DNA of 61,412 bases, filler included, from Sphacelaria rigidula (taxonomy: Eukaryota): assembly GCA_964200075.2 (NCBI GenBank). It is 9 parts of 9 records of this genome, joined end to end, with 100 filler letters (N's around TTAATTAATTAA, not from the genome) between each part and the next. Parts side by side here need not be neighbours in the genome. Positions count along the whole stretch, not along the records: positions 41,011 to 47,744 come from CAXNAA020018351.1; 8 more parts are not named here. One strand, written 5' to 3'. The position numbers and the translations under genes are program-made. Below the pieces are notes generated by a model. That model was not told the origin of the DNA. It ran no database searches and saw nothing but the letters and a program-made list of their open reading frames with translations. Below, piece after piece: positions 6,736-57,044 of the stretch. Every line of letters starts with the position of its first letter. The stretch's first letter is position 1.

Positions 6736-6835
6736 NNNNNNNNNNNNNNNNNNNNNNNNNNNNNNNNNNNNNNNNNNNNTTAATTAATTAANNNNNNNNN
6801 NNNNNNNNNNNNNNNNNNNNNNNNNNNNNNNNNNN
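6736..6835. other. Artificial contig spacer (N44-TTAATTAATTAA-N44). Identical spacers at 13571-13670, 20406-20505, 27241-27340, 34076-34175, 40911-41010, 47745-47844 and 54579-54678
   Basis: Identical 100-bp linker with stops in all six frames. The segments between linkers are 6735 or 6734 bp, as expected for length-sorted contigs concatenated together. Confidence 0.97.
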
Positions 6836-9479
6836 CGTGATCTGTATAGATGTGGAAAGGCACGTGGAACAAGTACTGTCGAAGCCGTTTAATAGCCCAA
6901 GTTATGACTCCGCCTTCGAGTTCGAGTGGACTCCAGTTTGCCTCGTTTGGGAGGGTTGCGTGGCTGATATACAAAATAGATCGGACAGAGCCATCCAATT
7001 GGGGCTGATTCAAAACTGCGCCGAACTCATCTGTGCTAGCATCGGTGTGTAGTTGGAAAAGACGTGAGCGGTCTTGTACCGCATCCCAATCCGGAAAACA
7101 AAGAACCGGTTTTTCGGTCAGTGTTTTGAGCAATTCGCGGACGGTAGCTTCCATTTCTTTAGTGAAGACAAACGGGACGTTCTTCTTCAATAAACCGGTG
7201 ATCGGCCGGATCCGCGTGGACAAGTTGGGCAAAAAATTGCGATAATAAGAAAGTCCGCCCAACAGCGAGCGAAGCTGTGGAATATTGGTGGGCATGGGCA
7301 TATCAGCCATAGCTTTGACCTTGTTCGTGTCTGGGTGCAATCCAGCAGGAGAGATAGAGTGTCCCAAAAAATCCAAATCAGTCGCTCCGAGTCGAGCTTT
7401 GGATGGAGAGAAATTCAAGGCGTGTGTACGCAAGCGGGAGAGGAATGCCCGTAGAGTGCGAACATGCGCCTTGGGGGAGGCATCAAAAGAGATAGCATCG
7501 TCTAGATACATGATAACATGCTCGAGACCGTCAGTAACGCGTTGCATGAGGCGTTGAAAGCAGCCAGGTACGGTGGCAGCGCCTTGTGGCATACGAAGCC
7601 ATTCATGAAGCCCTGAAGATGTGCAGAACGCTGCTAAGGGAACTGTATCGGTGTGAATTTCGTTTTGGAAAAATCCAGATGCGAGATCGAAAGTGCTGAA
7701 TATTTTCCTTCGCCGAGAGAGTCGAAGACTTCGTGGATGCGAGGTATGGGGATTTTTCCCACGACAGTGACTCGATTCAGCCGTTTGTAATTCACGGGAA
7801 TGCGTATGTTGCCATCTTTTTGGGGGACGACCACGAGGGGTGAGGCTCATGGCGAAGACGAGTGTTGAATCAGACCAGCTCCTAAGTATGCATCCAAAAT
7901 AGCATTGACTTTTTTGATGAGGAGGGGATTCGTTCGATATGATCGAGATGAGATGGGCGAAACGCCAGGTTGCAGGGTTATCTCGAATGGTAATGTTTTA
8001 CAATGCCCGAGATCCGTCTTGGATCGGGAAAACCTGTCCTGGTATTCCAGGAGAACATCGTGTAACTCTCGGATGACAGCGGGCTCCCAGCCCGGACCAT
8101 GTGGGTCGAAATGGATATCACGCAAGTGAGGTGGAAGTTGGCGCCACATTTGTAGGAAGTGTTCCCGAGACTCGATCGATAAGCGTTGAAGCACTTCATC
8201 AGGAGGTTCAGCAGGTGGTCGGTCGGATTCTACCGCAGAAATCCGAGTGGGGGGTGAGGGGGATAAATCAAAGTATGGCTCATCAACGCAGTGAACACAA
8301 CCATCAGTCGGCGGTGTGGGACCAGGCGCCGGAGGGTCGGCTACGCAGGTATCTAGAGGAAGGTGCATAAGAGGAGCCGCGGCGATGTCCAAGACATCGC
8401 CAGGTTCCAAATTAGCATGGCCTGTGAGAGGCAGGAGTTGTTCGCCGTTCGAGACAAGATGCTCAGTGCCAGCGGGCCCGCCAACTTTAGGCAGCAACTC
8501 CGCAAGGTAGTGGCCGGTGAGGGCAGGCATGCCGTTGCGGCGAACAAGTAAAACTTCCAAGAGTTGAGGCTCGTCGGAAAGGGTGGCGCCAGAACTGCCA
8601 TTGTATCGAAGGTGGTAAGCCGCTCCGATAGCCTGCTCATTCTTATTGTAGGCCAAGGCACCACTGAGGGTACCAAAGTGCTCTAGTTGGAGTTCTCCAC
8701 GAGGCGCCGACTAAGGCGATAATGGTGGTCGAACCGCATGTAGCTATCTCTGCTAAGAAGGAGAGCATGATGCATGGTGCTATCAGGGACGATGTAAGCC
8801 CAGACTGCGAGCCTAGCCGAACGTGTACCATTGTAGAAAAATTGCACACCAAGACGAACAGATTTTCGTGTCGTCAACGTTGTTTTGGAGTCGCCGAAAC
8901 CGCCCCAAACGCGAGGTTGGGTGGTGATTTCGCAGGCATCGGAAGCAGCGCTAGTCTGCTTCATGTTATTCCACATGGATTCTTTGATGAATGTCTGTGG
9001 ACTACCGCTGTCTAACAACGAGACGCACTTGGCACGCGTGGTGGCGTGAGGGCCGCAGTGTCATGCTACGCGGGTAGTGAAGGTGGCAGGATCAACGGAC
9101 ACCTTACCACCAACGAGGTCAGGGCCATGTTCAGATAATGTGAATTGGCCAGGACCGTGAAGACGGATGGCGGGTGATCCGCGGGGGGTTCAAAGGTATC
9201 GGTAGACAGGGTGGGGGCGTGATCCGATCGTGAAGGGCAGCGTGAATCAGGATTTTGATCAATCTCGTAGGTGACTGGCTTGGAAGTACAATGGTCATCA
9301 TTGAAGATAGATTGCCGCGAAGTGCCACGGGGGTCATCAGTGGAGGAAGCGGTACTGTCTGAAAGGTCCGATTTGGATTCCTCTTGGATGCCTGGCAATG
9401 TCCTCGAGCTCAAAGTCGCCGCTGTTTGTCCTACCGTCGGCGCCAGTGTAGTAAGGATAGGTATGGACAGGCTCCACAC
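6836..9479 (-). pseudogene. pol: Gypsy pol, 5' half: aspartic protease, reverse transcriptase and N-terminal RNase H (frameshifts and stops)
   Basis: Protease CVSLLDSGSPQTFI (~9000-9030). RT motifs FSTFDLASGFFQ, WLRMPQG, IMYLDD (~7500) and FLGHSIS. RNase H LHTDAS, LELE, IYTDH. Spread over several frames. Confidence 0.93.
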
Positions 9480-9498
9480 ACCTTCCTTGTATGATCAA

Positions 9499-9936
9499 TG
9501 TGCTGCAAGCTATGCACAAGGTACAATGATGTGTCCGAGAGATATATGTGTTTCCACACACAGGTTCACGTGACTGATGGTCAACAGTAGCAAACGAACA
9601 AAAGGAGCTCGTAGGCTTGATATCTTGTAATTCTCGCTTATTATTCTCTTGCTCGCCTAGCGTACTGTTCTCACCAAAGGTAAGCAGTAGGAGCAGATGG
9701 TCCAGCTCGGAGGGCAGCTCAAAGAGTGACCGAGGATGCATGCGACGCAACCTATCTGATCTAGGCCCGAAAAGGTGTTCCTTCTCCTCGGGGCTAGAGT
9801 ACACAAGTCTGTACGCCAACCTTCCTCAGAACGATGGGAGTATTCCCATGGACAGATCGGATGATCTGTAAGCCAACCTGCCCCAAAACTGTCTGAAGGG
9901 AAAAATAACGCCTCTCTATCTTCCTTCCTCATGACA
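9499..9936 (-). repeat. Putative LTR of the Gypsy element (~440 bp)
   Basis: On the minus strand, the purine tract GGGTGGGTGAG (9947-9937) is immediately followed by TGTCATGAGG. The 3' end at ...GCAGCACA (9499) is a best guess. No canonical TGG-PBS was recognised. Confidence 0.55.
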
Positions 9937-10536
9937 CTCACCCACCCAGACGAACCTCTATTTGAGTTGCGATGGAATCTCAAGAGCAACTAAAATTGAA
10001 GCTTGTCCCACCCATCAAGTCATGAGGAGACAACGCGAAAAAAAAACAAGAGGGCAATGACCAGCCCGGTGCCCGATCCCCCCACACCTCAAACAACAGA
10101 AACCAAAGGTGCCTCAAAAAACGCAATTACGCAATTGCGATTGACTGCGCAGTAGCACACAATGCTGCTGCAAGCTAGCGAACAGACGAAAAAAGCACAC
10201 AATGCTTTGACGCGCTAGCTAGATAAAAAACAAAGAAAAATCTCGCAACGGACACAGTGGCAATCTCAAGGAAGGAAGCAGAAAGTCAAAGACCCGAAAA
10301 GGGTAGTGCCAGCCGAACAAAGTGGTGGCAGCGTAGAAACCAATGGAAGGGGCGAAGGGGATTCAAAGGAAGGCGTCGAAGGGGTCGATGGGGGCAGAGA
10401 TGAGCCGTGACAGGAGAGCCATTGTTGGTGAAGCAGTGAAGAGGAGAGCGTACCTGAGTAGGGATAAGGGAAGTACCAGAACCAAACTGGGAGGGGAGAG
10501 AAAAATCGCAATAAAAGGAGTGCAAAGAGATAGGAC

Positions 10537-13500
10537 TCAAGATGGTACATTGACGTCGTGTGTACGATCGATATTGCGCTAAAGGCCTCGGCGTAGGCCG
10601 TGTGACTTGAAGCGTTGTAGGCACCAGGAATCGCGGGGTGCGGAGGGGCTAGTCGTGTTTCAATCGGAGCGGAGCTTGAGCTGAACGGGCCCAGCGTCGT
10701 CGAGGAAACGCACGATGTACGTGTCGGCCGCGGGGGCATCGACGGAGTGGATCTGACCTAGCTACCAGAGGTAATCGCTGCCCTTATACCACAAATAGGC
10801 ACATTTAGGGAGCGGTTGTTGTTTTGCGCGAATCTTTTCGTCCCATTGTTTGGTGGGTACGAGTTCGTAACCATCGGCTACAAACCGTAATCCTTTGTCG
10901 CGGTGGAGTTCGCGGGCTGCAGCACCGCGTTTCATGTTGCGATATCCCTTGTTGTCGGCGAGCTGTTGCTGTGGGGATTGCGTCCAATAAAGAAGGATAG
11001 CACGACGGTGCCGTTGACGGTCGGACTCGCGTTCCCAAGACGCACGCCGAAGACCTTGCCAGTGTGTCTTGTACATAACAGCAATTTTGCCGCCAGGACC
11101 TCGAGTGATTTGGTGGCCGGAAATGTGGGACACGGTCAAGCGGAGAGGTTGTTCAGTCACGTCATCGGTGGTAACGTGGTATGGGGGAGATTTTGTCGAG
11201 TAGCTGTTGAGCACGTATTGAGCAAGACCTGAAGGCAGGTATTGAGGCATGTCAGTAGTGTCATGCGGGTTCGTGCAAGGCTTGCAACGATACACAGAGA
11301 CGCGAGATTTAGCGTCATGTCCCTGGAGGTCACGAGGTAAATCGAGGTAGAGGAGTTTGTCGCCAACAGGCTTGCCATCTGGGGACGTTGGCGAGGGTCC
11401 TACTATGAGAATCTTGAACGGACCCGTCCAATTAAGGGACAGTTTGGTCTTCAAGACTGTTGCCTGGGCAGTGCGGTCAGCGCCTTGACGAATGGTGGAT
11501 AAACTGTTGTAGATCCAGACCCAATCGTCGATTTTCCAAGTAGGGCGTTTGTGCATCAAGTTGTAGAGGGTGGGACTGGATCTTTCAAGGCGTGAGACGT
11601 TGATAGCGTGTTGTTCGCGCACCAAAGTGAAAGCCTTGCGCTGACGAGCCCTGGCGAGGTCGTGGTAGGACATCTGATCCTGTTCCAGACCTTGGTGACC
11701 ATCGAAGGTATGTCTTTCGAAAACGGTGATGGGCAGACGAGGGTAGTGTCCAAGATGTAGCTCGTTGGGCGGAAGGCCTGTAGCCGCGTTGACCGAATTG
11801 TTATAAGACAGCATGACATGCGAAAGATAAAGGTCCCAGTCATTCTGGCGGTCGTTTACGACCATGGAGAACATTTGAGCCATAGTGTGGTTCACACGTT
11901 CAGTTCCACCGTTACCGTTAGGGTGGTAGGCGCTCGTGGCAATTTTGCGAATGCCAAGGAGCTTGTACAAAGCATCCGAGAGTTCGGAGCAAAATTGTTG
12001 ACCATTGTCGGAGAAGAGCCGTTTCGGGCAGCCATAGTGCTTAATGTAAATCATGGACGAGAATGTTCGCTGTGCCGGCAGCAGTGAAATCGCTAGCAGT
12101 AACAGCGTACGTAGCCGCGTGACGGCTGAAGCGATCGGTGAAGAGCAGAATGTAGGTATGACCACGGTCAGCGGTGGGTAAAGAGTCGAAGTAGTCAAAC
12201 GAAACGAAGTGACCAGGAGCGTTTGGAAGCTCCATGGAAATCACCGGCCATCGTATAGTCTGTCGAGAGGTTTTGCGAGCCTGACATTTGAAATATCGTC
12301 GGATCCAAAAACGCGTGGATGCTTCCATGCCAATCCACCAATAAAAACGTTCGAGGAGCGCAAACGTGCGTGTGACGCCTAAGTGGCAGGACAATTCAGA
12401 GTGATAGCCCTTCATGACCCACGGACGCATCATGATAGGGACATAGATGCGGATAGGGGCGTCATGACGCATATGTGCCGGAGTGGCAGTTCGTGCTCAA
12501 ATGGGAGTTGGGTCGGCGAACAAGCAAACGGACGTCGTCGTCAGTCGCGAAGATAGTACCTTTGCGTGCAAGCTCGAGCACGTCAGAGGCGATGGGGGCG
12601 GGTAGAGTGCCCACGGGAGTCAGGATCTCAGCCGGGAAAGGGACGGGGCAGTTAAGTCGTAAGTACCGCATTGTCGCGCGACAAAGCGGTTCCTGTTGTT
12701 GGTCGCGAGCCCAATCGCGGTGAGAGAAGCTAGCGAGAAAGTCTCGAAGTTGTCCTTCAGCCGGAGAGCCAGCCAAACATGGTGGCTCAGGAGGGGGTGG
12801 CACAGGTGAGGAAGCAGAGGTGCTGACGTCAAAATTTTGGTCCGGAAGCGGATCTGACGCATGCGGATCGCGAGTCGGAGGCGCAGGTGCAGGGAGATTC
12901 CCAGAAGGCTGCGTGGGGGTAGCGCAAACTGGTGAACGTGATCGGCGCGTTGGGCGCGCAAGGAGCGCGGACTTTGTCGGTACAACAGTGGGCGGGCGGC
13001 CGGTTGCGGTAGGTGTTGTACGGCTCGTGGGGGCACGAGGCGGCGGCGGCGGCGACGCATTGCTAGAATCGGCCGACGGCGGCGGTGGTATCACGGCACG
13101 TGAAGAATTTGCACGAGCTCCCGACCAAGAACGCGTGTTGTCGGAGATGAGGTGAGCGGTTGGTGGTGGCGGCGCCGAGACGTTCGCGCGAGGGCCGAAA
13201 GTGCGGAAGTCGGCAAAGTCAGTAGCTTTGGGCGCTAAGCCATCCAAAACTGTATCAGGGGGCAGAGGGCGGGGGCCCCCCATGTGCAGACCTGTTTCAG
13301 GGCATTGCAGGCTAAGCGCGTAGATGGGCTTAGAAAAACGCCGAATGGGGTAGACGCCTGGTTCATCAGGTTCAGTCAAGCGGCAGGCGGGACTGAAATC
13401 TACCGCTGTAGGGGGCAGAGGCAATCGCGAAAGAAGTCAGCATTGCCGTTGGTTCTGCCCGGACGGTGTTTAACAGTGTACTGGTAAGCAGTCAAGAACT

Positions 13501-13570: not shown

Positions 13571-13670
13571 NNNNNNNNNNNNNNNNNNNNNNNNNNNNNN
13601 NNNNNNNNNNNNNNTTAATTAATTAANNNNNNNNNNNNNNNNNNNNNNNNNNNNNNNNNNNNNNNNNNNN

Positions 13671-15997: not shown

Positions 15998-17509
15998 CAG
16001 ATCCATTTTCTGCACCTTGCTGCGCTGAATTACACGGTGCTGTCTGGATTGTACTTTGCGGCTGTGATGAAGACACGCCGAGGGCAAGGAGCAACACAGG
16101 AGACAATATCTGCAATCTGTGCGGTACCATCACTCGGACATCGTGGGAGATTCGATGGCAAATCACTCGAAGATACTTCGCTCAGGATCCTGGACCCAAC
16201 CATGTTGACGATGATCACTGCCTCTACTTCTCCTGCACTGCACTCTCCTGAGTATCGGAAATAGAACACAAAATAACTGCACTACGCTATGAGACACTCT
16301 GGGAATGCAGAAATGAGGGAAGAGTTGATTTCTTCGTGTGCACAAAACTCAGTTTTCGTGACGACACAGCTACAACTTCGTAGGCACCATAATGTTATGT
16401 ATTGACTCCCCCTACTGTTGTGTTTAAACCGTGCATGACGAGGTATAACACCCCCCAGTTTAACGCAAAGTTGTCGGGTAAGCTCGACTCTCAATAACAC
16501 TGCGGCTATGTCATGGGTCACGTCGCTTGCATTTTCATCACTAGAAAAATGAAAGTGGTGCCTCTATGAATAAATAGGGGGTATCTCATGCGTACATCGC
16601 CTTCAATTCACATGAATGTCAAGGTTCTGAAAACTCCGCTACCGGCCGTCACCTTTCACGGTACTTCACCTAACCGTCAAAATGGTCTAGGACAGTCAGA
16701 AGTCCCGGTTTCTGCAGAAACACACGCTCACCTCCAGACGTTGCACCAGCGACAATATTATGCATATATCCAGGCACAACTGACGCCAATACGTTTTGCG
16801 GCGGTGCTCTCGTTGGCTCATGGTTAGCCTCACCATCAGGCATGCTATCTTGTTGTACGTTGCGAGAGTACAGGGAGGCACTACACATGTTTTTCGTTAA
16901 AACATTGGGGGTAGATCTTGGTCTAGTCCCGTTGGTCAGCGAGTGAATCGTCCCACATTCACCTTCGTGTCACGTGTAGAAGAAAAAAAATGACGAGCGT
17001 CGCGATGGGCTGCTGGAGTGCTGAACCAATCCGCAGAGCCAAACGATTAGAAAATTGATGGGGGAGAGATGGATTGATCCTTCTAGACTTCGGCCTCGTC
17101 CCGAGGAAGGGTGATCTTATACTCGTAGGGATAAAAAGTGTGATGAGCACACAACGACCTCCGCCATCATCTATGCGGTTCCTCGCAATGTATTGATCAT
17201 TTTTCTTCCTAGAGACGATCTTTTGTTCCAGAACAATGAAGAAACTGGAAATCCAACAGTGACAGGCTCTGGACATTTGAGCAACGGAGCTTACACGCTG
17301 GGCCGAGTTGGCGTGTGTCTATAGAATGTACACAGGCAGGTAGGTGGTTGTCGCATATAGCGTTAGCTCAGTACAGAGTTGCTGTTTCACCCTCTCCTTG
17401 TTACAGGTTGGACGGACGCTGTGTGTGTGGCTCAGGTCTAGTTCAATCGATATCTTGCTCTTGTCGCAGCCAAAAGTATACCCCCAATATCTTACGGGCC
17501 GACTGGCAG

Positions 17510-20166
17510 ATGGATCAAGGTCCTCTCCCCGCCCATGGTGCAAATAACCTGAAGGAGAAAAACAGCGGTGGCGGTGTTGTCAGGCGTTTCACCTCCCGAG
17601 CGCGACAGCTACCAAGACGAAGACGTAGCGGAACTCCGTCCCAGAGAGACGTGCCGCCAGCACCGACAACGTCAATCACAGTACCTACTACCAAGCGCGG
17701 GAACACCCCGCCGGACGGATCCTTGCTGGCTTCCGCTGCCATTGCTGCTGTTTTGTCCAACTCTCGCAACCCCGGCAAGGTCATCTCTGCCAAGGAGGGA
17801 ATCACAAGAGGGGAAGGTGGCGGTGTGAAAAAGATGATAAATAACAGCCAAGTGACCGCGGCGGCTGCGGCGGCGGCCCCTATCTCGTCAGTTGGAGCTT
17901 CTTCGCGTACAAGTTCATGGAAGCAGAATACGTCCGCGGTGGAGCAGGATTTGCCCGTGGATACGGATTCGACGAGTCCGCCGGTAGATGAGCAGCAGAA
18001 CAGCAGTAGCAGAGGGCAGGAGAGAGTTCAAAAGAGCGATCAAGGCAAGAACGCTGACGCACTAGACGCCCCGATAGTAGAGCAGGACAAGGGCGCGCCA
18101 TTGACGACTACAGCTACAGACAGCAGCTGCAGCCTACAGTGTGCATCTCAGCGTACATCAACTTTTGACCACGAGAACGTAAACCGGGCGGGGCAACCCT
18201 TTGCGGCAAAAAGCAAAGGAGTTGACGGCAGCAAGGGGCATAGCCTGTCCATCAACGCCAACAACATCAAAAGCAACGATCGTCGAGTCCACTTCCCAGA
18301 CGCTGCTGCGCATTCTACGCAATCTTCATCAGGAGACACCCAAGCAGGCGATCGTCACCACAGCTCGAATTCACCCAACCAACACTTTGGTCACGTACAC
18401 GGGAAGACAACTCAAAAAAGCACTGATCGGGTCCGGGATGATGTTGGTACCGATTCCGATAATCATAATTTGCTCAACAAATCAATAACTGGTGCATCAA
18501 ACGGCACTCCAATGCCCACCAGTAAGGACAAGGGAGTGGCGCCGGCACCGACAATAGACCGAGGTTTTCCCTCTCGCCCCGCTGCCGCGTCTGGAGTACC
18601 TGAGAGCGCAGCTACTCCTCTCGACAACCTCGAGGCTGGCACTACTGGCAGCTGCAAAATCAACAGTCAGTCATCTGATTTTACGTCTGTGGCTACCAAT
18701 AGCATTGAATCAAGCAAGCGACCAAAGAAAGGAAAGAAGCAGCAGCCCAACAAAAGCAACAGTAGTCGCCAACAGCAACACCGACCTATTTCCACCTCAA
18801 CTGTATGCCAACCCACATCCGCGCCCCCGACTGGCACGGTCACGCCGAGACCACAAAAGACACCACCCCCGCGAACATGTTCTCGTTCTCATGATCACAG
18901 CGTTCGAGGGCGCAGAGTCGAAAAAGCGTATAAACAACCATCTCCTCAGGAAGGAGGAACTGAGGTAATTGAAGACACGGATCCGCAAGGGCAACCGTTT
19001 TTTGCTAAGGGAACAGCGGACGCACCGAGCGATCGGAGCCAAACGATCCTCACCATACCGACAGCTATAATGCTGCCATATCCCCCTGTTACTGCGTCCG
19101 TATATTACTCTGCAGAGCAGCATGCTGTTGGTATTGCAGCGCCCAATGAGCGTGATATCCTCGATCACCAGCCGCATTTACACCGCCGTTCTGCAGTTTT
19201 GCGGGCAGATGCCGCTCCCTTCGAGCTACCTCTTTCCGAACAGAAAGCGATACCACCAAGAGTCAACGAGGGCGGGCCCGTTCGCTACGACTCTACAGAC
19301 GGCGCAAGCGTGGATGCAGACACCGTCAACACCGTGGGTTTTTCTAGGGGAGATCGGGAACAGCGATGCGGGACCGAGAGCGCGAAGACTTGTGATCGTC
19401 AGCTTCGCGAAAAGGATGGTTCGACGATGACCGGGAACGGCGGTGGTCATACCGACTATAACGATACTGGTACGACAAGAAATGGCATAGTCGGCCCTTC
19501 CGTTGTTGGAGAGCAGCACAAACCTGTGGGGGTGGTGAGCAGAAAGTCGTCGTCGGGTCAGGAACGGTCAGAGCGACGCCCCGAGGATATCGAATGCGAA
19601 AAACAGCAGGAAATGACATCGGCGAAGCATCAGTGTCGGCAAGGACAGCGACAACGCCCCAACCACAAGACTTCTACCTTTACTCCGCGGACAACTAATA
19701 AGCAGCACAAACGGGTCAACGAGAAGGCGCGACATAACCTCCAGGACAGCAGTCCTTCGGTACGCTCTTCTCCTCACCAACAATCAACAACCAATGCATC
19801 GTCTGAGACTAGCGCTCGTACGGCAACGGCGGCGAACAACGAGCTCGTGTCAGCTGTAAACGCCGCCGCCACCACCACCGACACAAGTAGTGTCAGTATT
19901 TGCAAAAATGACGGTGGTAGTCCACTCCATGATGTGGTGCATCTGGCTGCTGACTCTCTAGCACAATGGGCAGTAGGTGAAGGCAGAAATAAATGCGCGG
20001 GAGATGAGTGCCTCGAGATGCTCCGGGACATCAGACAGAGCTCTGGGGCGCTCAGTGTCGATCTGCGAGTCGAGAGCAGCAGAGGAGGCAAGCATAGCAA
20101 AGACGGAAAGGGTAGCAGTGACAATGATGGTGGTGATGACGATGATGGTGTGGAAAGCACCACAAG
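17510..20166 (+). CDS. Very large exon of a low-complexity, probably disordered protein (S/T/Q/G-rich) with a PAM2-like motif; partial gene
   Basis: Open frame of ~885 codons from ATG 17510 (or the acceptor ggcag| at the same site). Ends at the donor AG|GTAAGG at 20166. Contains SAVLRADAAPFELP. Confidence 0.75.
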
Positions 20167-20328
20167 GTAAGGACATTATTAGTACGACAAGGTTAGGGAA
20201 ACCTTTGTGTAAAACCTTTGTTTCTATTCAACTCACTTCCGATTCTGTCGGCGGTATTCATTTTACTGAAGAAATCGGGCCCAATCTCTGAACTCAAGCG
20301 CCTGACACAACCTGCTCGAAAAACCATC

Positions 20329-20361
<33 letters not shown>

Positions 20362-21209
20362 CCCGCAACCCAATTCTTCCCTGCATTCCGAGCAACCGAG
20401 CTATANNNNNNNNNNNNNNNNNNNNNNNNNNNNNNNNNNNNNNNNNNNNTTAATTAATTAANNNNNNNNNNNNNNNNNNNNNNNNNNNNNNNNNNNNNNN
20501 NNNNNGGAGCGCCCATCTCGTAAAATGTCCCCCGTCTAGTATTTTTTTCCCGAGAATCTCGTTAAATAACCAACCGTAAGTATCCATCTTGTATTTTTTC
20601 CTCGTTATTTGCAAATAACGAGGGGAAAAAACCAACCGCAAGAAACGACCTTATGCCCGTGAATGGGGCTCGAATTTGGGTACTCTATATCGGGAAAGTG
20701 GACCAACCAACTGAACAGTCAGTTAAACGCAGAAGAAATGAAACCTAGATGAGCCAATCGCCAGCAATCACAAGTACACGCGTCACTCGAAATGACGAGG
20801 ACGCTCATACAACATGCACTATTACTACAGTACATTTTAGAACAAACCGGTGACTGACGTTGCTGTACACCTGTAGACAGGGTTACGACAAAAGGAGGAC
20901 AGAAACTGCTGCTCTTGTTGTTGTGCCCCTCTTGCTGCAGTATGTTGCTGTGCCTATCTTTCAACGCAGTTCTCTCGGCAACGAACCAGAGGATTGGATT
21001 GCGGTTTAATGCGCGCGCTTTCCACACACCAGAACTAGTCAGTGTGGCGACGGAATTCCGTAACACGTGCTGCAGAGGCCGCAGCAGTCTGCAACCCGCG
21101 GCATCAAACACAAAGTGTACTTACAAACGCCTTTCCTCTAACGTTCTGGGGCTTTTCGGATCCGTTGTGGCGAATTGAGCAACCCCGCAGCCACACTGAC
21201 TAGGGGCCG

Positions 21210-27240: not shown

Positions 27241-27340
27241 NNNNNNNNNNNNNNNNNNNNNNNNNNNNNNNNNNNNNNNNNNNNTTAATTAATTAANNNN
27301 NNNNNNNNNNNNNNNNNNNNNNNNNNNNNNNNNNNNNNNN

Positions 27341-27698
27341 ATGCATACTTTTTTTCACTTGAAATTGATGCCGATTCAACAGAAGACTAATCTCGCGGTC
27401 TAAGCGTTAACCCTTAGGCCAACTCTTATGGGAGCGTTTATCATTTATTTTGCAATAATTTAAAACAACATTTTTTTTCTTTGCCGTAGTTGTGTATTTT
27501 GTGCCCGTTCACCATGATGACAAAAAAAGAAAAAAAAATCCTCTGAAATTGTTGCAAAATAAAAATTTCAAATGCTCCCATAAGAGTTGGCCTTAGACCG
27601 CGAGGGTAGGTCACCTGCTGAATCGGCATCAATTTTCACTTTTGAAAAAGTATGAGGAATTCAGATGGACTACTCGCACCGCGGTCTGAAAGGGTTAA
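27341..27698. mobile_element. piggyBac-like MITE (foldback), left end cut by the contig start
   Basis: Arms ~27343-27440 and ~27571-27656 are inverted (ggccaactcttatgggagc / gctcccataagagttggcc). The right end AAAGGG|TTAA is at 27689-27698. Confidence 0.65.
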
Positions 27699-33238: not shown

Positions 33239-34233
33239 GGTTGACGAGACAAATCGGATGTTGAAATCAAGTACACGATTTTTTCACCCAGCCCACGTGA
33301 AGCAACAATCGTACGCACCAAGTCAAATCAACTTGACAGAAGCAAAGTGGGGCGCAGTTTTTTCGACTGACCAAAAAACAATTCGGGGAATCTGGTTGAT
33401 CGAAATCCGTGCGTAGTAGTAGAATCTACTGTTTGAACTGGATCATGACTGTCAGTCGCATGAAAGAAACGAGACAGCATTGAAACGAACGAACATCCTA
33501 GACCTGAGCATGCCCGTATAGAATGTGTAAGCAGAACCTCGCTGGTCAGCTATCACTTATCTACCTACAGCGCGGTCAGAAGTCTGTTGTGTGGTCCACC
33601 AAGGTGCGTCATGACCATCAGAAAGAGATACGCTGCGAGCTGGGCCAGCCAAAGATAGGTGTGACTCTCGCTCAGGCGACGCACGGCGTGATACCAGGAG
33701 TTGGACGCTGAATTTTTTACAGCAGTTTTTTTTTGTTATCGAAGTGCAGAAAATCACATGAGCAGCAAATAAAAAAATAGAAAAACGAGGAAGTTACGGG
33801 GATTCGAAATTTCAGCAAAAACAAGATAATGCCACAAGTCCAGTAAAAAAAAGAGAATCTGCAGCTGCTCAAGTGATGTATCATTTCCTTGGGTGCAGAA
33901 GGTCTTCCTGACATTTCAGCTCAAGAGTTGTCGAGTTGGGCCGTGCGTGCAACATTTTGCGTGACGCTGCTGCACCCCTATAATTCAAGTGATGGGAGAC
34001 TTCAAGTACGGAGGTCATGAGTTCGAATCCCGACATATCCTCTTTTATTTCTGCACTTCACAGTGTGATATGCTTNNNNNNNNNNNNNNNNNNNNNNNNN
34101 NNNNNNNNNNNNNNNNNNNTTAATTAATTAANNNNNNNNNNNNNNNNNNNNNNNNNNNNNNNNNNNNNNNNNNNNGGTTACTTGATTCCAGTATTGGAGC
34201 GGGGGATCATTTTGGTCATTAATAATATTGATG

Positions 34234-40860: not shown

Positions 40861-41297
40861 ATTTTATATTTTGGGGTTCATACAAAATATGGGGCTGAAG
40901 TGGCATATCTNNNNNNNNNNNNNNNNNNNNNNNNNNNNNNNNNNNNNNNNNNNNTTAATTAATTAANNNNNNNNNNNNNNNNNNNNNNNNNNNNNNNNNN
41001 NNNNNNNNNNCAGAAAAAAGGAAGACTACGAATTCTGAAAACTTCTGACGCTGACTACTATACGCCGCACACTGCTTCAGCCAACACAGGGACATCTCAA
41101 GGCACTCACACACGATGTACAAGTGCTATCCTGTTATTCGATTTTTTGTTCTGAAATAGGCAGTTTCTAATTTCAAAAACCGTCAGTCTTCCATCAAATA
41201 CAAAAGAAAATAGGTAACCTACCATGGCATTCGTCAACACGAAAAGAAAATGTAAATATCACGCATTTGACAGTATAGCGTAGCCAGTGAAAATGAG

Positions 41298-41495
41298 CAG
41301 GGTACTTATTGTTACACGTCAGAAGTTAAGCGACGTCGGGCCGGGGTAGTACTACGGTGTGGGACCACGTGGGGAGACCCAGGTACTTGATTTGAAGGAA
41401 CGGCACTAGGGCTCCCCACGTGGGCCCACCCCCCACCGTAGTACTCGTCGCCTGGCCCGACGCTTAACTTCTGACGTGTCACAAGAAGCACCCTG
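41298..41495. mobile_element. hAT-type MITE whose inverted arms are 5S rRNA-derived (box A/IE/box C)
   Basis: TIR CAGGGT...ACCCTG. 8-bp TSD AAAATGAG/AAAATAAG (1 mismatch). Arms contain GAAGTTAAGCG..GGCC.GG.TAGTACT..GGTG.GGGACCAC.TGGG.AG.CC, resembling the 3' half of 5S rRNA. Confidence 0.8.
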
Positions 41496-42325
41496 AAAAT
41501 AAGTTAGGTGAGTTGACTTGTCCTACGTGTGGACCATAACATGCGTAAGTTCAGGTAATCATGACTACATGAGTGATGGGAGCATCACACCCTGGGCAAT
41601 CGATTACATTGGTGAAAAAATGTACTGCGCACAGTATCGAATCTAGTGTTTACCGCAAGAAACCAGTAGGGCTAACGATGTTCGTACACAATGGTTGACA
41701 GGGATGACTACTACTTGATTTTAGACTCGAGAAACTTATGTGAGAATGTATGGTTTGGGGGCAGGTGATCAGTGGACACGGCTCGTCCATAATGTGTTCT
41801 TGTCGAAATCGGCGCCTTCGGCGACGATTCAAGGTCTGCCAACGCACACTTTGCCTCTGGGAATCTATGCACCCTCCTTGTCTGAGGGTCTTGTGCGCCT
41901 TGGGTCGGGGTTAGGGTTAGTATCGGGGTTACAGTTAGCTTCTAATATTCCATGATGTTTCCCACCAACCATTGTGTACGAACATTTTTCTAGGTCCCCT
42001 CCAGAAGACAAACTAGATCGGTTGCCGTACGCAGTACATCTTTTATTTATGTAATCCGTTGTCATTGCCAAGGATGTGCAAATAGCTACCAGTGCATTGG
42101 TGCAGCTGCTCACCAATTTCAACACATGTTAGAGTACATCGACGTCGAACAACAAGAGGCTTTCCCAACACACAACCCCGACGCCAGAAAATGAAACAAA
42201 AGTAGGTAACCAACAGGGGGGGAAAGTCACTGCGACACGAAAGCATCGCCGTTGTCGTGGTCAATCAGAACGAATACAATATATATATATATATATATAC
42301 ATCGTGGTTGGTACATGCTACATAC

Positions 42326-43341
42326 CTTATGCTGCTCTCGCTCGAGCTCGACCATCGTGGCCTTCGCTCTCTCTAGGTCCTTGCCAGTAGTGATTCCGGA
42401 CTGAGTACAGTTGGCGACGGCTGTCTTGATGCTCTCCAAGTGCCCCGATTTTACCGCGGTCCTAATTTTTCAGACGTCAAAATACATCCGAGTGATATCT
42501 TGTTTCACTTCATTACCATGTTTCTCGAGTCCTTCAGCTGTGTTGGCAGGTTGATTTGTTCATGTTCACCCAGCACCTCCGACCAGCTAGGGTGGAGAAT
42601 TTTCTTTGCTCTTCAATTCCACGTATCTTTCTTCTGTTTTTTTGTTGTTGTAGACTATGTCGTACCGGGTCTGTGTGGGTTGTTTCTGGGTCCGATTTTA
42701 TCTTATATTTGAATTTTACCCTCGCTTGGGGTAGTTGGCCTGCGACCACGGAAGGCGTACGCATCAGATGGCCAGTACAGTGTGTGTGTGTGTGTGTGTA
42801 TGTTATCGTCCCGTTTATTCTGGACCCCAGTCTACCCCTTTCGGGATATGTGGGCGCATCAGCCGGGGTCGCACAGGAGGAAGGTCAATACAGGGGCTTT
42901 TTCTTTGTTTCTTGTTTCTTAATGCTCCACCTTCCTTCCGCGGTGCTTGCCTTTCCTCTTTATCGCGAGAGGGGTTTAGCAGTCCCTTTCCCTCGTCGAC
43001 TATGAGGTCGAATTTGGTGTACCCACGACATAGTCGCTCTCCACTGCTTGGCGTGGTGTAAGAAAACATCCCAGATTGCCCCGGGGATCGAACCCCACAA
43101 CTCAATTATCAGAAGGTTACGAGGTTACCAACTGAGTCACCGGGGCGACCGGCTCAAGCACAGAGTACTGCCCAGATATCGGACTGGTTTTCAATAGAAG
43201 ACAATAACGACAAGAGTCGCTCAATAAGCGCTTCCATCTCATGTAAGGAATAGTAGCGACCATACTGGGGAGGCGGGCCTATGTCCGAGACCATGGGATC
43301 GGGGAACCGGGCTAATGGTAGTAGTCGCGTAGTAGTCGTAA

Positions 43342-43399
<58 letters not shown>

Positions 43400-46251
43400 T
43401 TTTTCTACTTTTACCACTACTACCACTAACGCAATTCGGCTTTGCGATGGGATACGTGCGCTCAAAGGTGGCTCTCGGGGAGGTGAACAAAATGTTGCGT
43501 TCAACCAAGACAAGGTAACGTCTTCTAATACGCGTTGATGCGCGTAAAATCGATGGACTGCATTAGTGGCTGCCGCACATTAACCGATACACTGGTAATC
43601 TGACCGTGGTAACAAATATATTATTTTGGATTTATTCTCACGAACGGTGCGTATAGTTCTGCGTATGTTTCATGTTTAGCCGTCGTGATTGTAGAAATGT
43701 TGCCATAAGTCGCCATGTCGCCATGTTCTTCATGCTCCATGATAATCATCTTGTATTATGTCTCTTTATGCTCTGGAAAATGGCTAGTGTGAGAAACAAC
43801 AAAAACAAGATACGCACGTCACCAGTTGGATCTCGATCGCACCGCGGTGGAACCCAGGCCGTACCTTAGAGCCTTGAGGGTGGTATGGGTCACGAGCAGC
43901 TCCTTTTGCAGTTGCTTTGCGGTCTCCACCTCTCCTCCTACCAGCCCCATCTCGCTCGCCTTCTGCAGGTGAATGTTAAGAGCGTCTAGGTCCTTGTCCA
44001 TTGCCGCATTCATCAATTCTTGGCGGCAGATCGACTCGCCCTGCGGATGCCACGAGCACATACACAGGCAAAAGTTATGAATAAAACGATGGGAGTGAAA
44101 AAGCGCGACTGCTTTTGTTTTGTTCGTTTCTTGTTCTAACCTCTAACCCATTCCCTTCCAAGGGACGAGTCCGTGGTGTCGAGAGATCGAGCCATCTCTA
44201 CCCCGGCACACGCGTTGAATTTTGGGATAGCGGATTGAATCATGGCCATCAGCTCTTCCACACCGTGCCGCCTGCCGTCTACCTACCTCAGTCCTACAGA
44301 TTCGTTTCGCTACTGAAGTCCTCACGCATTCACCAACGGTAATTAGATACTTGAACAGGGAAAACGTATTAGGAACTGACGAATATTGAACGCGCATCTT
44401 TCCCGCCCTAATGGCGTCAGTTATAGCATTACACCACAGGGGCGCGGCGGCGATGTCCTTGAAAAAAAAACGAGCTGCAGGGAAGGGAGGGCGCGGGGGT
44501 AAAGGACAAAGTAATAGGAATAAAATTTGACAAAAAAAAAGTGAACAGGAAACAAGAACAAGGAAAGAAAAGGAGAAAAAAGGCGTCCGCCATGCCACGG
44601 CAGGGGAGCACTTTTTTCCCCCTGAGACTCTTTATTGTAGGAGCCCTTTCGTAACGAAAATCTGGGCCATAGACATCGAAAATCCAACTCGCCTCGATCC
44701 GAAGACGCATGGCCTGCGCCTGTTTGACCTCTTCCCCGCCGAGGTTCATTTCCTCCGCCTGCGCAAGTAGATCCACGACCGACTCGTAGTCTTGACTCTC
44801 CACGGCCGTCCGAAGAGCCAGAATGACTCGCTTTTCGGCCTCCAATATTTCCTGTGGATGATGGAATATGCGGATCGATTTGAGGTCTCATCAATTAAAG
44901 GAAGGTAGCATAAGAATATGTTGAGGTACCTCGCCACCTTAATGAGAGTACAACAGGTGGATTCATCTTACAGCCGTAAAACATAACAATTTTGACAACT
45001 CGACCCACACACGCTATTTTTCCCCCCTACAATTCGACATTTTGTCACTTCCACATCAGTGACAGGGACCTTGAGGACGACCTATCCTGACTTATCCGAT
45101 CGGAGTTCTTTCTGCAGCACGTTTTCGATTATAAAAATCGTTACGATACGCCCTGAGCATATCCTAGGAATCCGCCAAGTTGGGTTCGTGAAACCCTTCA
45201 CCTCTGCTCTTGCTCTTCCTTGACTGAGGGTGTTGTATTGACTCTCCTGAAAATTTCCTCACTCAACACGTATTCCAATTCAGCCCAACCTTCCTAGGCG
45301 TGGGACTCATGAGCCGGATAAAACCGGTCAACATTCTGTTCCGCGATTCATAGTCGTTCGATATTGAGAACTGAAAAACTCTATCGTGCATCGATTTCTT
45401 GTCCAGAGCGATCTTGGTGCAAAAATCTCACAACATCACTACACGATACAGAAATTCAGTCATACCTCTAAGGGCGCAAAAATACAGAACATGGCCGTAT
45501 CTATACAGCTTCGACAACGGCCAAAACCACGCCTTAACCCCAAGCAAGAAATACACCTACGAGGCAGTGTATAAGCCGTGCCTGTGTCTGGAAGTGGCGA
45601 TACCAGAAATTGAAGCAACTCATTGTAGGCTGTCATCCAAATACAAGATAATCAGTACGCTTCGGGCAGAACAATCTTAGCAGGATACAGCTCAACCTTC
45701 ATGCGACCTGGGGAACAAATCACGGCACTTCACACTTGATTAATTGCGAGCCTGATCCGGCGGAACACGGCGTGCTCCGTCCCGGCTTTGTAGGGATGCG
45801 AGGTCAATGGTCATACGACCATGGCATGCAGGATTGTGAGTACACCCCCCTTCCGCCTCCCACCTGTTTTTGGCCCATTGTGATTATGTCGAGCAATTAT
45901 GCCCAAGGAACACGACTCTACGAGACCCTTCTGCCACCAAATATGGATTGCGAAAACTTTCGATTCGAACCCCGCAAACTCCGAAAACGAGAGAAAGAAA
46001 AACCCTCACGCCCGCACAGAACCAATATTTTTCACCTGCATCTGGCGGGCCTCGTCCACCTTGCGGTGCTTGTAGGGAGGATCCATGCGATCGCAGCCCG
46101 CGAGAGCATTGGCCAGCGCGTTGAGGTCGCGACGCTGCATTGCCTCCTCCAGCAAAGAGTACGCCTTCTGCTCCAACTCTAACCGACGCATCAGGGCCTC
46201 AGCTTGTTGAACAACGGGGATGTGGGCCCCGTTGTTCGGCAACTCGTTCAC
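42326..46251 (-). CDS. Internal exons of a helical ~55-70-aa repeat protein (myosin-tail-like). Exons 46251-46036, 44851-44693, 44040-43865, 42461-42326
   Basis: Each exon encodes about one repeat L..A....D...L...L..A..M.L.G.EV..A..L. Phases 0,0,2 are compatible. The second donor is GC (AG|GCGAGT). Myosin identity is only inferred. Confidence 0.75.
42781..43153 (-). mobile_element. tRNA-derived SINE with a (CA)n tail
   Basis: Minus-strand head gccggtcgccccggTGACTCAGTTGGt...GGTTCGATCCCcgg (A and B boxes), a ~280-bp body, and an end ...gataacatacacacacac. Confidence 0.75.
43318..43398. repeat. (AGT)n microsatellite
   Basis: Directly visible. Confidence 0.95.
45575..45850 (+). repeat. Dispersed repeat family A copy
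   Basis: Contains the family core and ends gagtacaCCCCCC. Confidence 0.85.
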
Positions 46252-46638
46252 CTGTTTTGTTACGCGTCGGTGTCATTTTCGGCATGTTGAAACAAGATGA
46301 AGGCAGGCAGGGACCAAGACAGATATGATACAACCACGAAATATCCAAAGGATAGGCGAACAAAGGAAAAAATCAAAGACAGGAAAAGAGCACATCGTGA
46401 AGAAAAGTATGCGAGTCTCAATGCAACAAGTCATCGTCAGTCTTATTTTCCTCCGACTTCCTAGTATCCGCAGCACTCCACCTCCCTCTTCTTACGAGCC
46501 TCTTCATACCTTCTTTGACGAGAAGAGGTCAGCAAAGGTTCAAAACTTTCCCGCCAGTAAGCGATGAGCACACTTCGTGACCTTGTAAACACTGCCTCAT
46601 TGTCGTCCACTTAATATCTGATCCTCCCCCATTCTCCC

Positions 46639-46834
46639 CAAGGGTTTACACGTTACACTCGTAAAGTTAAGCTAGGCTAGTAATACGGTGGTGGATAGAC
46701 GGACACCATGTGGGGAGCACTGTTCAAAATTCCAGTCGAATCAGGGCTCCCCACGTGGTGGGCTAGCTTGGCTCCACTTTCAACAACTGTTGACGTGAAA
46801 GATGAACGTAATGAGTGCAACGTGTAGACCCCTG
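46639..46834. mobile_element. Second, more diverged 5S-derived MITE copy
   Basis: TIR caagggtttacacgttacactc / gagtgcaacgtgtagacccctg. Contains aagttaagc..ggctagtaatacggtg..accatgtggggagc and gggctccccacgtgg. Length 196 bp versus 198 bp for the first copy. Confidence 0.6.
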
Positions 46835-47269
46835 AATTTCCAGACGCTTTGGTGACCGCTTGATCCGACCCAGGGACGTGCTGCTCACGAAGCCTACAAA
46901 GCCATCTCATCGCATCACCACACCGATGTCAAACTACGATCAAACCTCGACGGACACTTGTCGCAATCAGCTCCCTTCATGTGGCGTCAATCACGATACG
47001 CCCATGTCGTAGGGGCTTACACACTACTGAAGGCAGTATTTCCTCTCTCTCTGCCAATATATTTTGTCAAGCCAAACGGCGGGCGGCATGGGCGACAGCC
47101 CCTCCTGATAAAGATCCTCCCACCCCTACCCCACCACAAACCTTCGACTAGACAGAATACTGAAGTTACCGATTGCCATCAGGTATACTCTCGCGCGTGC
47201 AGCCTACAAACACGGGGCACCTCTCAATACAAGCACCTCAACGTCACTAACTCGCTCCCCCCCAGTTCG

Positions 47270-47530
47270 GCAGTGCAACCCGTGGCTGTCTCCGGAAGTT
47301 ACAATACCGGAAAAAATCAACTAATTCGAGGATGTCATCCAAATGCAATATAATCGGTACGCTTGGGCCGAAAAATCTCAACAGGATGCGGCTCACCCTT
47401 CATGCGACTCGCCGAACATATCGCATTTTGCGCTTGGTGATTGATTGCGAGCCTGGTCTGGCAAAGACTCCACGTTCTGTGTCTCGGCTTCGTAGGGATG
47501 TCAGTCATTAGTCTCACGACTGCGACATGC
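47270..47530 (+). repeat. Dispersed repeat family A copy (diverged)
   Basis: ccgtggctgtctccggaagt...ctcacccttcatgcgactcgccgaaca...cggcttcgtagggatg. Confidence 0.8.
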
Positions 47531-47844
47531 CGAAAAAAGAGCTCCTTCCCAACTCCCCGGATAAAACCAAGCAACGAACGATTAAGAGTCATGGCAAATC
47601 CAAAGCATCTACAGGCTGGGCCGCCCAAGAAGCAGACTTTCCTTCAGCCGGTTTTAACTGATGATCTATCGCGAGCTGTGCCTACCATGACACATCGTGA
47701 TAATCTGCAGATCAATGCGCGTCTTTCACTTCACGTAGCACTGCNNNNNNNNNNNNNNNNNNNNNNNNNNNNNNNNNNNNNNNNNNNNTTAATTAATTAA
47801 NNNNNNNNNNNNNNNNNNNNNNNNNNNNNNNNNNNNNNNNNNNN

Positions 47845-54240: not shown

Positions 54241-54678
54241 AAATACGCCGTTACGTCGAGTTGGTGGTAATGATCTGGATTATGACTGGGGGCACGGGGG
54301 TTCTGCAGGATTCTGGGAGGATTCCGGATAATGACCGGGGACATGGGGATGATACCCTGCGTGTCTAGGAGGTTGGTGTCTGGAAGGGCACTCCTGATAA
54401 TGAGATGTTGTAAAGCCTGACAACTGAAACTGAGGCCAGCAAGGCAGGGGACTCCTTCAATAGCAGTGATCCACTAGCTCTTCTTCTGGCTGGCGTCACA
54501 AATAGCAGCAAACACCCGACTTTATATTTTGGGGTTCAAACAAAATATGGGGCTGAAGTGGCATATCTGTCTTGCACGNNNNNNNNNNNNNNNNNNNNNN
54601 NNNNNNNNNNNNNNNNNNNNNNTTAATTAATTAANNNNNNNNNNNNNNNNNNNNNNNNNNNNNNNNNNNNNNNNNNNN

Positions 54679-56619: not shown

Positions 56620-57044
56620 CACGGGATTTTACCTATTGGGGGTGGATTTTTTATTGGGGATGAGAACCCGGACAATTCAAATCTTCGTATTCACACCAAA
56701 TCTTCGAAACATGGTTGCATTTATTCACTTGCTGGTAGCTGTTGACAACTACTACACGCCATACAAATTTGAATTTCGATAGCCGGAATGCTGGGGTCCT
56801 AGGTGAAAAACCAATATTGGGTTCCAATCAGATCACCTGAGATCCCAAAATTGTTTCTTCAACTAGGAACCCAACATGTCGGTTATCAGGATCCAAATTT
56901 GTATGGTGTGTAGTAGTTGTCAATAGCCACCAATAGGTGAAGGAATTGAAGTACGCTTCGAAGATCTGGTGTGGATACGAAGGTTCTAATTTTCCGGGTT
57001 CTCATCCCCTCAAAAAAACCATGCCCAATTTGTAATATCCCGTG
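56620..57044. mobile_element. Family B foldback MITE, full length (425 bp)
   Basis: Termini CACGGGAT...ATCCCGTG. Arms pair almost to the centre (~56830). Confidence 0.85.

Follow-up and report, generated by a model that had tools for sequence, protein, structure and literature searches.

Copy 1, a foldback element of 198 bp, belongs to a repeated foldback family that has defined ends and occupies at least two loci with unrelated flanks. Our preferred reading, held with somewhat better than even confidence, is that it is a non-autonomous cut-and-paste foldback MITE with hAT-like hallmarks, the arms of which were derived from a fragment of a 5S rRNA gene. The family and its ends are a matter of direct comparison between copies. 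The origin of the arms and the assignment to a transposon superfamily are argued below.

The window (the whole stretch of DNA that was analyzed, 61,412 nt) is made of nine pieces of about 6.7 kb each, joined by N44-TTAATTAATTAA-N44 linkers. Pieces that lie side by side in it are not necessarily neighbors in the genome. Copy 1 starts 288 nt into the piece at 41011 to 47744 (Table 1). The DNA of the window is eukaryotic and repeat-rich. Remains of a gypsy-type retroelement occupy 6836 to 13436 on the minus strand, with RVT_1, RT_RNaseH, and RT_RNaseH_2 in 6836 to 7997 and Integrase_H2C2 in 12044 to 12496. The nearest named relatives of the RT/RNase H ORF (6836 to 7997) are from Ectocarpus sp., a brown alga, at 44 to 57% identity. 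Judging from this transposon protein, the host is probably a brown alga or something closely related, and one public run containing the stretch carries the label "algae metagenome." A 976-aa open frame without a Pfam family runs from 17240 to 20167 on the plus strand, and its sole relative among 5.8 billion proteins is one unnamed 952-aa protein that is 99% identical. Two more long hairpin-like stretches, at 27390 to 27607 and 56778 to 56887, gave chance-level matches to plant microRNA precursors (MIR2655/MIR5048 and MIR6450; E values of 0.4 to 0.8). They may be other foldback repeats.

Table 1. Features of the window discussed in the text (positions count along the whole window)
Feature	Position	Strand	Remarks
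Foldback element, copy 1	41298-41495		198 bp; ends CAGGG...CCCTG; filled site spanned by X1, X2, and X4 contigs
Target-site duplication, left copy	41290-41297		AAAATGAG; 7/8 identical to 41496-41503
Target-site duplication, right copy	41496-41503		AAAATAAG; 7/8 identical to 41290-41297
Outer inverted repeat, left arm	41298-41335	+	Pairs with 41458-41495; 38 nt, 89%
Outer inverted repeat, right arm	41458-41495	-	Pairs with 41298-41335
5S rRNA-like segment, left arm	41322-41387	+	RF00001 match, 29.5 bits, below the gathering score
Foldback center/loop	41388-41403		Unpaired or weakly paired in predicted folds
Mirror-image 5S-like segment, right arm	41404-41471	-	From the arm alignment; shifted by indels
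Foldback element, copy 2	46639-46834		196 bp, diverged; ends CAAGG...CCCTG; duplication ATTCTCCC/AATTTCCA, 5/8
Probable exon of an expressed gene	42326-42463	-	About 830 nt right of copy 1; exact match to a 6360-nt X6 contig
Linkers	6736-6835, 13571-13670, 20406-20505, 27241-27340, 34076-34175, 40911-41010, 47745-47844, 54579-54678

The initial annotation described copy 1 as a foldback with CAGGGT/ACCCTG termini and a near-perfect 8-bp target-site duplication, and both descriptions were borne out. The sequence reads CAGGGT at 41298 and ends with ACCCTG at 41495. A repeat search found inverted pairs of 38 nt (89%), 27 nt (85%), and 16 nt (94%), and the foldback extends along the entire element. 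Folded as DNA, the element reached -77.3 kcal/mol, compared with -31.3 ± 3.0 kcal/mol for 200 shuffled versions, none of which was as good (z, -15.6). Its minus strand folded as RNA gave -132.8 kcal/mol (z, -13.7). When the two arms were aligned to each other, 76 of 102 columns were identical and 16 columns were gaps. In that alignment, the right arm differs from the left by a 3-nt gap, insertions of 1 nt and 2 nt, and an insertion of 5 nt. The flanking 8-mers AAAATGAG and AAAATAAG agree at seven of eight positions, and 8 nt was the best register when registers of 2 to 12 nt were compared. Matches of at least 7/8 between 8-mers 206 nt apart occur at 30 of 59,560 window positions (0.05%).

A second copy was reached through a 16-nt exact match to copy 1. 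Aligned end to end, copies 1 and 2 are identical in 133 of 224 columns, with a score of 32. This score was not reached by any of 2000 random 196-nt windows (mean, 5.6; maximum, 22) or by any of 2000 artificial foldbacks (maximum, 23.5). Just inside the ends, the likeness of the two copies exceeded that of all 1000 controls over the first 60 nt and that of 966 of 1000 over the last 60 nt. All four comparisons of their 60-nt flanks were at control level, and the flanks are unrelated. Copy 2 also folds back on itself (-46.3 kcal/mol; z, -6.95). As in copy 1, the flanking duplication fits best at a register of 8 nt, here with a level of identity (5/8) that has a background rate of 3.1%. No ORF of at least 90 aa overlaps copy 1 or copy 2, so both are short elements without coding capacity. 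A profile built from the four arms and searched with nhmmer matched exactly those four arms in the 61 kb. The initial annotation had raised the possibility of two independent 5S-SINEs inserted tail to tail. We rejected it, since the entire foldback layout and the two outer ends recur in copy 2.

We also looked for relatives in other collections. An exact 32-nt stretch of the left arm had no locus in metagenome_contigs. A two-motif pattern did find 24 loci there, but all were judged to be chance matches: blastn of the element against these loci returned nothing at an E value of ≤1e-3. An Rfam scan of 20 of the 24 loci detected no 5S, and the same pattern had no locus in viral_contigs.

Contigs from four public runs were aligned to the region at a likeness of at least 80%. 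Contigs reaching across the filled copy 1 site were present in X1 (604 nt), X2 (604 nt), and X4 (610 nt). X4 is from a different study and its spanning contig differs by 7 letters, which places the filled site in two studies. Over the element, the contigs were far deeper than over the unique flanks, although the summed word-depth used here is not a copy number. In X1, it was 19.1 in the unique flanks, 6,806 to 7,390 across 41311 to 41410, and 89,212 across 41411 to 41460. The corresponding values were 8.6, 3,256 to 3,480, and 76,144 in X2 and 20.2, 6,510 to 3,243, and 99,466 in X4.

The contigs over the element also vary in sequence and structure. At 41343, there is an A instead of a G in 20, 17, and 21 contigs of X1, X2, and X4, and at 41346, there is a C in 17, 12, and 17 contigs of these runs. 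Some contigs resemble foldbacks shortened from within, connecting 41374 with 41453 (three runs) or 41376 with 41450 (X4), with the caveat that joints at a likeness below 95 are often repeat-derived. In six X4 contigs, a center like that of copy 2 is joined to a right arm like that of copy 1. Many related pieces exist elsewhere in the X1, X2, and X4 assemblies, and some of them may be true 5S genes. The counts refer to positions inside the element.

These observations bear on whether the element moved by cut and paste. A 5S pseudogene or a 5S-derived SINE could instead have been inverted locally, and the resulting palindrome could have been spread by segmental duplication or recombination. The two full copies that are readable would suit such a history, being no more than 5.3 kb apart in one 6.7-kb piece. 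So would the lack of an empty site (a joint of 41297 to 41496) among the joints listed for the contigs of the runs, together with the lack of a transposase in the window. However, local spreading does not fit with unrelated flanks and a likeness that begins exactly at the termini. It also fits poorly with an 8-nt flanking duplication at both copies and with the many further related contigs in three runs, and neither an A-rich nor a LINE-like tail is present. We regard this history as highly unlikely and prefer a MITE that moved by cut and paste.

Several other repeats were seen close to or within copy 1. About seven contigs per run, all of very high depth, match the right arm only from about 41433 to 41464, and the 3 nt at 41446 to 41448 are missing from them. 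Their abundance relative to the flanks is about 1.9 times higher in X2 than in X1, whereas the dispersed repeats near copy 1 have the same flank-relative ratio in both runs. This difference raised the idea of tandem 5S rDNA. The deep contigs may be that, a satellite, or members of the family, and they seem not to reach the universal 5S block next to them. An extremely abundant short repeat opens the piece (41011 to 41062). Its summed depth in X1 is 335,000, compared with 19 in unique flanks, and 41025 and 41062 are points at which many contigs diverge. Another small element, at 41678 to 41985, begins 180 nt to the right of copy 1. Its inverted ends (ATGTTCGTACACAATGGTTG and its complement) are perfect over 20 nt and lie about 308 bp apart, and it contains telomere-like GGTTAG units at 41905 to 41938. 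Very many related contigs cover it in all runs, with summed depths of thousands to tens of thousands, and no clear flanking duplication was seen around it.

The initial annotation placed copy 1 in the hAT group. An 8-bp target-site duplication and YARNG termini are given as typical of hAT elements (PMC3014272). All four termini of the two copies (CAGGG, CAGGG, CAAGG, and CAGGG) fit YARNG, and the 8-nt register was the best in both copies. By chance, about 1 in 64 termini would fit YARNG, and two ends in each of two copies are non-independent tests. A hAT-like MITE is the best structural reading. The structural half of the original claim was upheld, with hAT as the most likely superfamily. None of the 197 ORFs of at least 90 aa in the 61-kb window matched any transposase family. 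The only family matches among these ORFs were RVT_1, RT_RNaseH, RT_RNaseH_2, Integrase_H2C2, and MFS_1_like.

The same foldback family might instead have been moved by a different superfamily. Superfamilies other than hAT also make duplications of about 8 bp, and the hAT label derives solely from the duplication length and a 5-nt terminal motif, scored in tests that are not independent. The absence of a transposase match in the window would be consistent with such a mover. However, the combination of an 8-bp duplication with YARNG ends is the one quoted for hAT (PMC3014272), and every one of the four termini fits it. We therefore consider another superfamily unlikely and retain the hAT-like assignment.

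We then turn to the 5S likeness of the arms. At the Rfam gathering level, the whole window had no match. Once the thresholds were relaxed, copy 1 matched RF00001 by its left arm at 29.5 bits (gathering score, 38), with an E value of 3.2e-4 on 401 nt. When the entire window was scanned blind with 4227 families, this match had an E value of 0.049, the lowest of the eight matches listed, and RF00001 was the sole family named before the scan. The match covers model positions of about 50 to 110 and is gap-free from 51 to about 103 to 108. In the cmscan alignment, 44 of 61 consensus positions from 51 on are identical, including an identical run of 14 nt. In Xenopus coordinates (box A, 50 to 64; intermediate element, 67 to 72; box C, 80 to 97), the left-arm match corresponds to the internal control region. 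Upstream of position 51, the left arm lacks 16 nt and bears little resemblance to positions 1 to 29. What appears as helix I in the RF00001 alignment is flanking DNA (41289 to 41297) paired with the loop. This pairing is spurious, and the score is somewhat inflated by it. Therefore, the left arm matches a fragment of 5S and not the full molecule, which is about 120 nt long and includes helix I.

The other arms gave a different result. Neither the right arm alone nor copy 2 matched RF00001 at an E value of ≤10. The initial annotation had read the same string of 5S motifs on each arm. The left arm fits this string, including the N5 spacing, whereas the minus-strand arm has the same blocks shifted by indels. 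A search for the pattern GAAGTTAAGCGNNNNNGGGCC with up to two mismatches had a single match, at 41322. The two 5S-like segments do point toward each other, but the proposal of two convergent 5S promoters was not sustained, because the right arm is without a 5S match and has the 5-nt insertion inside its would-be promoter. What survives of the proposed match to the internal control region is the left-arm segment, at a score below gathering. Matches of MIR1858 (40.7 bits versus 137), mir-629, and other families over copy 1 were rejected, because any long G+C-rich hairpin yields such matches.

Could the 5S likeness be coincidental or convergent, with one arm of a G+C-rich palindromic MITE happening to resemble 5S? 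A score below gathering, part of it from the spurious pairing with flanking DNA, would be in keeping with coincidence, as would the silence of the right arm and copy 2. The left-arm stretch also draws chance-level matches to hairpin microRNA families. However, coincidence would have to produce some 55 to 60 gap-free nt in which the most conserved 5S blocks stand in the right order and at the right spacing. It would also have to account for the extent of identity to the consensus and for the lowest E value in a blind scan of 61 kb. We find coincidence very unlikely. As we read the left arm of copy 1 and the homology between the arms, the 5S likeness is real but weaker than was first claimed. 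The element is taken to be a mirror-image 5S-derived fragment and neither a gene nor two intact promoters.

Inverted duplication of an element end is the usual proposed route to foldback MITEs, and a history of this kind would suit copy 1. One end of an element, together with an adjoining 5S fragment, would have been duplicated in inverted orientation. The arms would then consist almost wholly of an inverted duplication of a 5S gene fragment (about positions 45 to 110), capped by about 24 nt ending in CAGGG. Its mobility would have come from a transposase acting in trans, with 8-bp staggered cuts and recognition of YARNG-type ends, most likely one of the hAT superfamily. The right arm of copy 1 and copy 2 keep the blocks AAGTTAAGC, TACGGTGG, and CCA(C/T)GTGGGGAG with their order unchanged. 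Because of this, the 5S piece would be ancestral to the family and now decaying, with detectable likeness already gone from the right arm of copy 1 and from copy 2. The 5S piece may be captured passenger DNA rather than a promoter that the element needs, because cut-and-paste movement requires no RNA intermediate or transcript.

The surroundings of copy 1 suggest how it now resides in the genome. Immediately left of the block at 42326 to 42463 is a minus-strand GT donor, and the block has a single open frame. There is no other exact match between this block and 41011. Because of the exact X6 match, the donor, the open frame, and this lack of any further exact match, copy 1 probably sits in an intron, and transcription of the gene would make it a hairpin in the pre-mRNA. 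Runs X6 to X9 were counted as RNA by guess only, and with this proviso, X6 has no cover over 41111 to 41360 and little over the rest of copy 1. An (AT)n run lies beside the probable exon, at about 42281 to 42300. Copy 1 would be an old, fixed intron insertion, probably with no function beyond a very stable pre-mRNA hairpin.

One could instead regard the element as a working RNA unit. Pol III would start in the control region of the left arm, or the pre-mRNA hairpin would be diced to small RNAs, some of them antisense to 5S. Some features are compatible with this idea, although each bears on it by inference only. The 5S internal region is preserved gap-free in the left arm, the predicted RNA hairpin is very stable, and copy 1 is probably in an intron of an expressed gene. 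The plus strand is without a four-T run until 41719, so that a transcript begun upstream would read through the entire hairpin. Both flanking duplications contain T4 runs on the minus strand, and the one at the right flank is upstream of the right arm, where it weighs against such a unit. The 5' third of 5S and helix I are missing. The 5-nt insertion in the right arm falls between conserved blocks, and the motif is lost in copy 2, with no sign of selection. Together, the insertion and the loss argue against selection for promoter function. We consider a working RNA unit extremely unlikely and keep to an intron insertion carrying passenger DNA.

A bolder version would be that this is the first class II family built from the 5S internal control region and that its better-kept arms recruit TFIIIA, TFIIIC, and Pol III. 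We give this little credence. If such recruitment did occur, the family could be a source of long hairpin RNAs, of small RNAs including some antisense to 5S, or of portable chromatin boundaries across a brown-alga genome.

5S-derived retroelements use the Pol III promoter to produce an RNA, which is later copied back to DNA. A cut-and-paste MITE needs no Pol III RNA. Therefore, a 5S control region in the arms of a MITE would mean either that DNA transposons capture such sequence as a neutral passenger or that it has another use, such as factor binding or hairpin RNA. A family of this kind scatters 5S-like sequence and can mislead the annotation of 5S genes, FISH counts of 5S loci, and the mapping of small RNAs. 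If the host assignment is right, 5S-derived repeats would extend to stramenopile algae.

The initial annotation had stated that 5S capture is known in retroelements and not as the arms of a MITE, and we found no contrary report. Section 11 and Table 2 of a 2024 review, the parts considered here, list SINEs and the Cassandra and Ajax TRIMs as the only 5S-derived elements (PMC10946416). Every 5S-derived mobile element in that table is a retroelement, and the one DNA transposon listed as derived from rDNA is Pokey/mPok, with spacer repeats (PMC10946416). A 5S-derived MITE was not found in the literature searched, a provisional result since most subscription journals, Repbase, and Dfam were outside the search.

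Compared with known systems, copy 1 is most like hAT-type MITEs in being short and non-coding and in having inverted ends, an 8-bp duplication, and YARNG termini. It differs from them in that its arms resemble a 5S fragment and not the deletion remnants of a known transposase-bearing element, and no autonomous partner was identified. The 5S-derived SINEs (SINE3/AmnSINE1, OS, MEG, Ped-1, 5S-Sauria, and HaSE3, as listed in PMC10946416) likewise place a 5S internal promoter region in a dispersed repeat. However, these SINEs move by way of RNA and consist of a single 5S head at the 5' end, a body, and a tail that is LINE-like or A-rich. Copy 1 is tailless and bounded by inverted repeats, with its 5S-like part in mirror image and a duplication of fixed length (8 bp).

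In the Cassandra and Ajax TRIMs, 5S promoter-like sequence also occurs twice per element, within the terminal repeats (PMC10946416, PMC10853983). Their LTRs are direct repeats around a primer-binding site and a polypurine tract, whereas the repeats of copy 1 are inverted with a loop of about 16 nt between them. Dada-5S DNA transposons also link class II elements with 5S rRNA genes, but these genes are the insertion targets of Dada elements and not the material from which they are built (PMC8869645). Targeting of a 5S gene in the Dada manner was rejected as an explanation of copy 1, because the halves of the target would flank the element in direct and not inverted order (PMC8869645). Closest in carrying rDNA-derived sequence internally are the Pokey/mPok piggyBac elements and MITEs of Daphnia, as summarized in PMC10946416. 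Their rDNA comes from the intergenic spacer of the large rDNA unit and not from 5S, and they belong to another superfamily (PMC10946416), whereas the arms of copy 1 would represent 5S sequence itself, carried by a hAT-like MITE.
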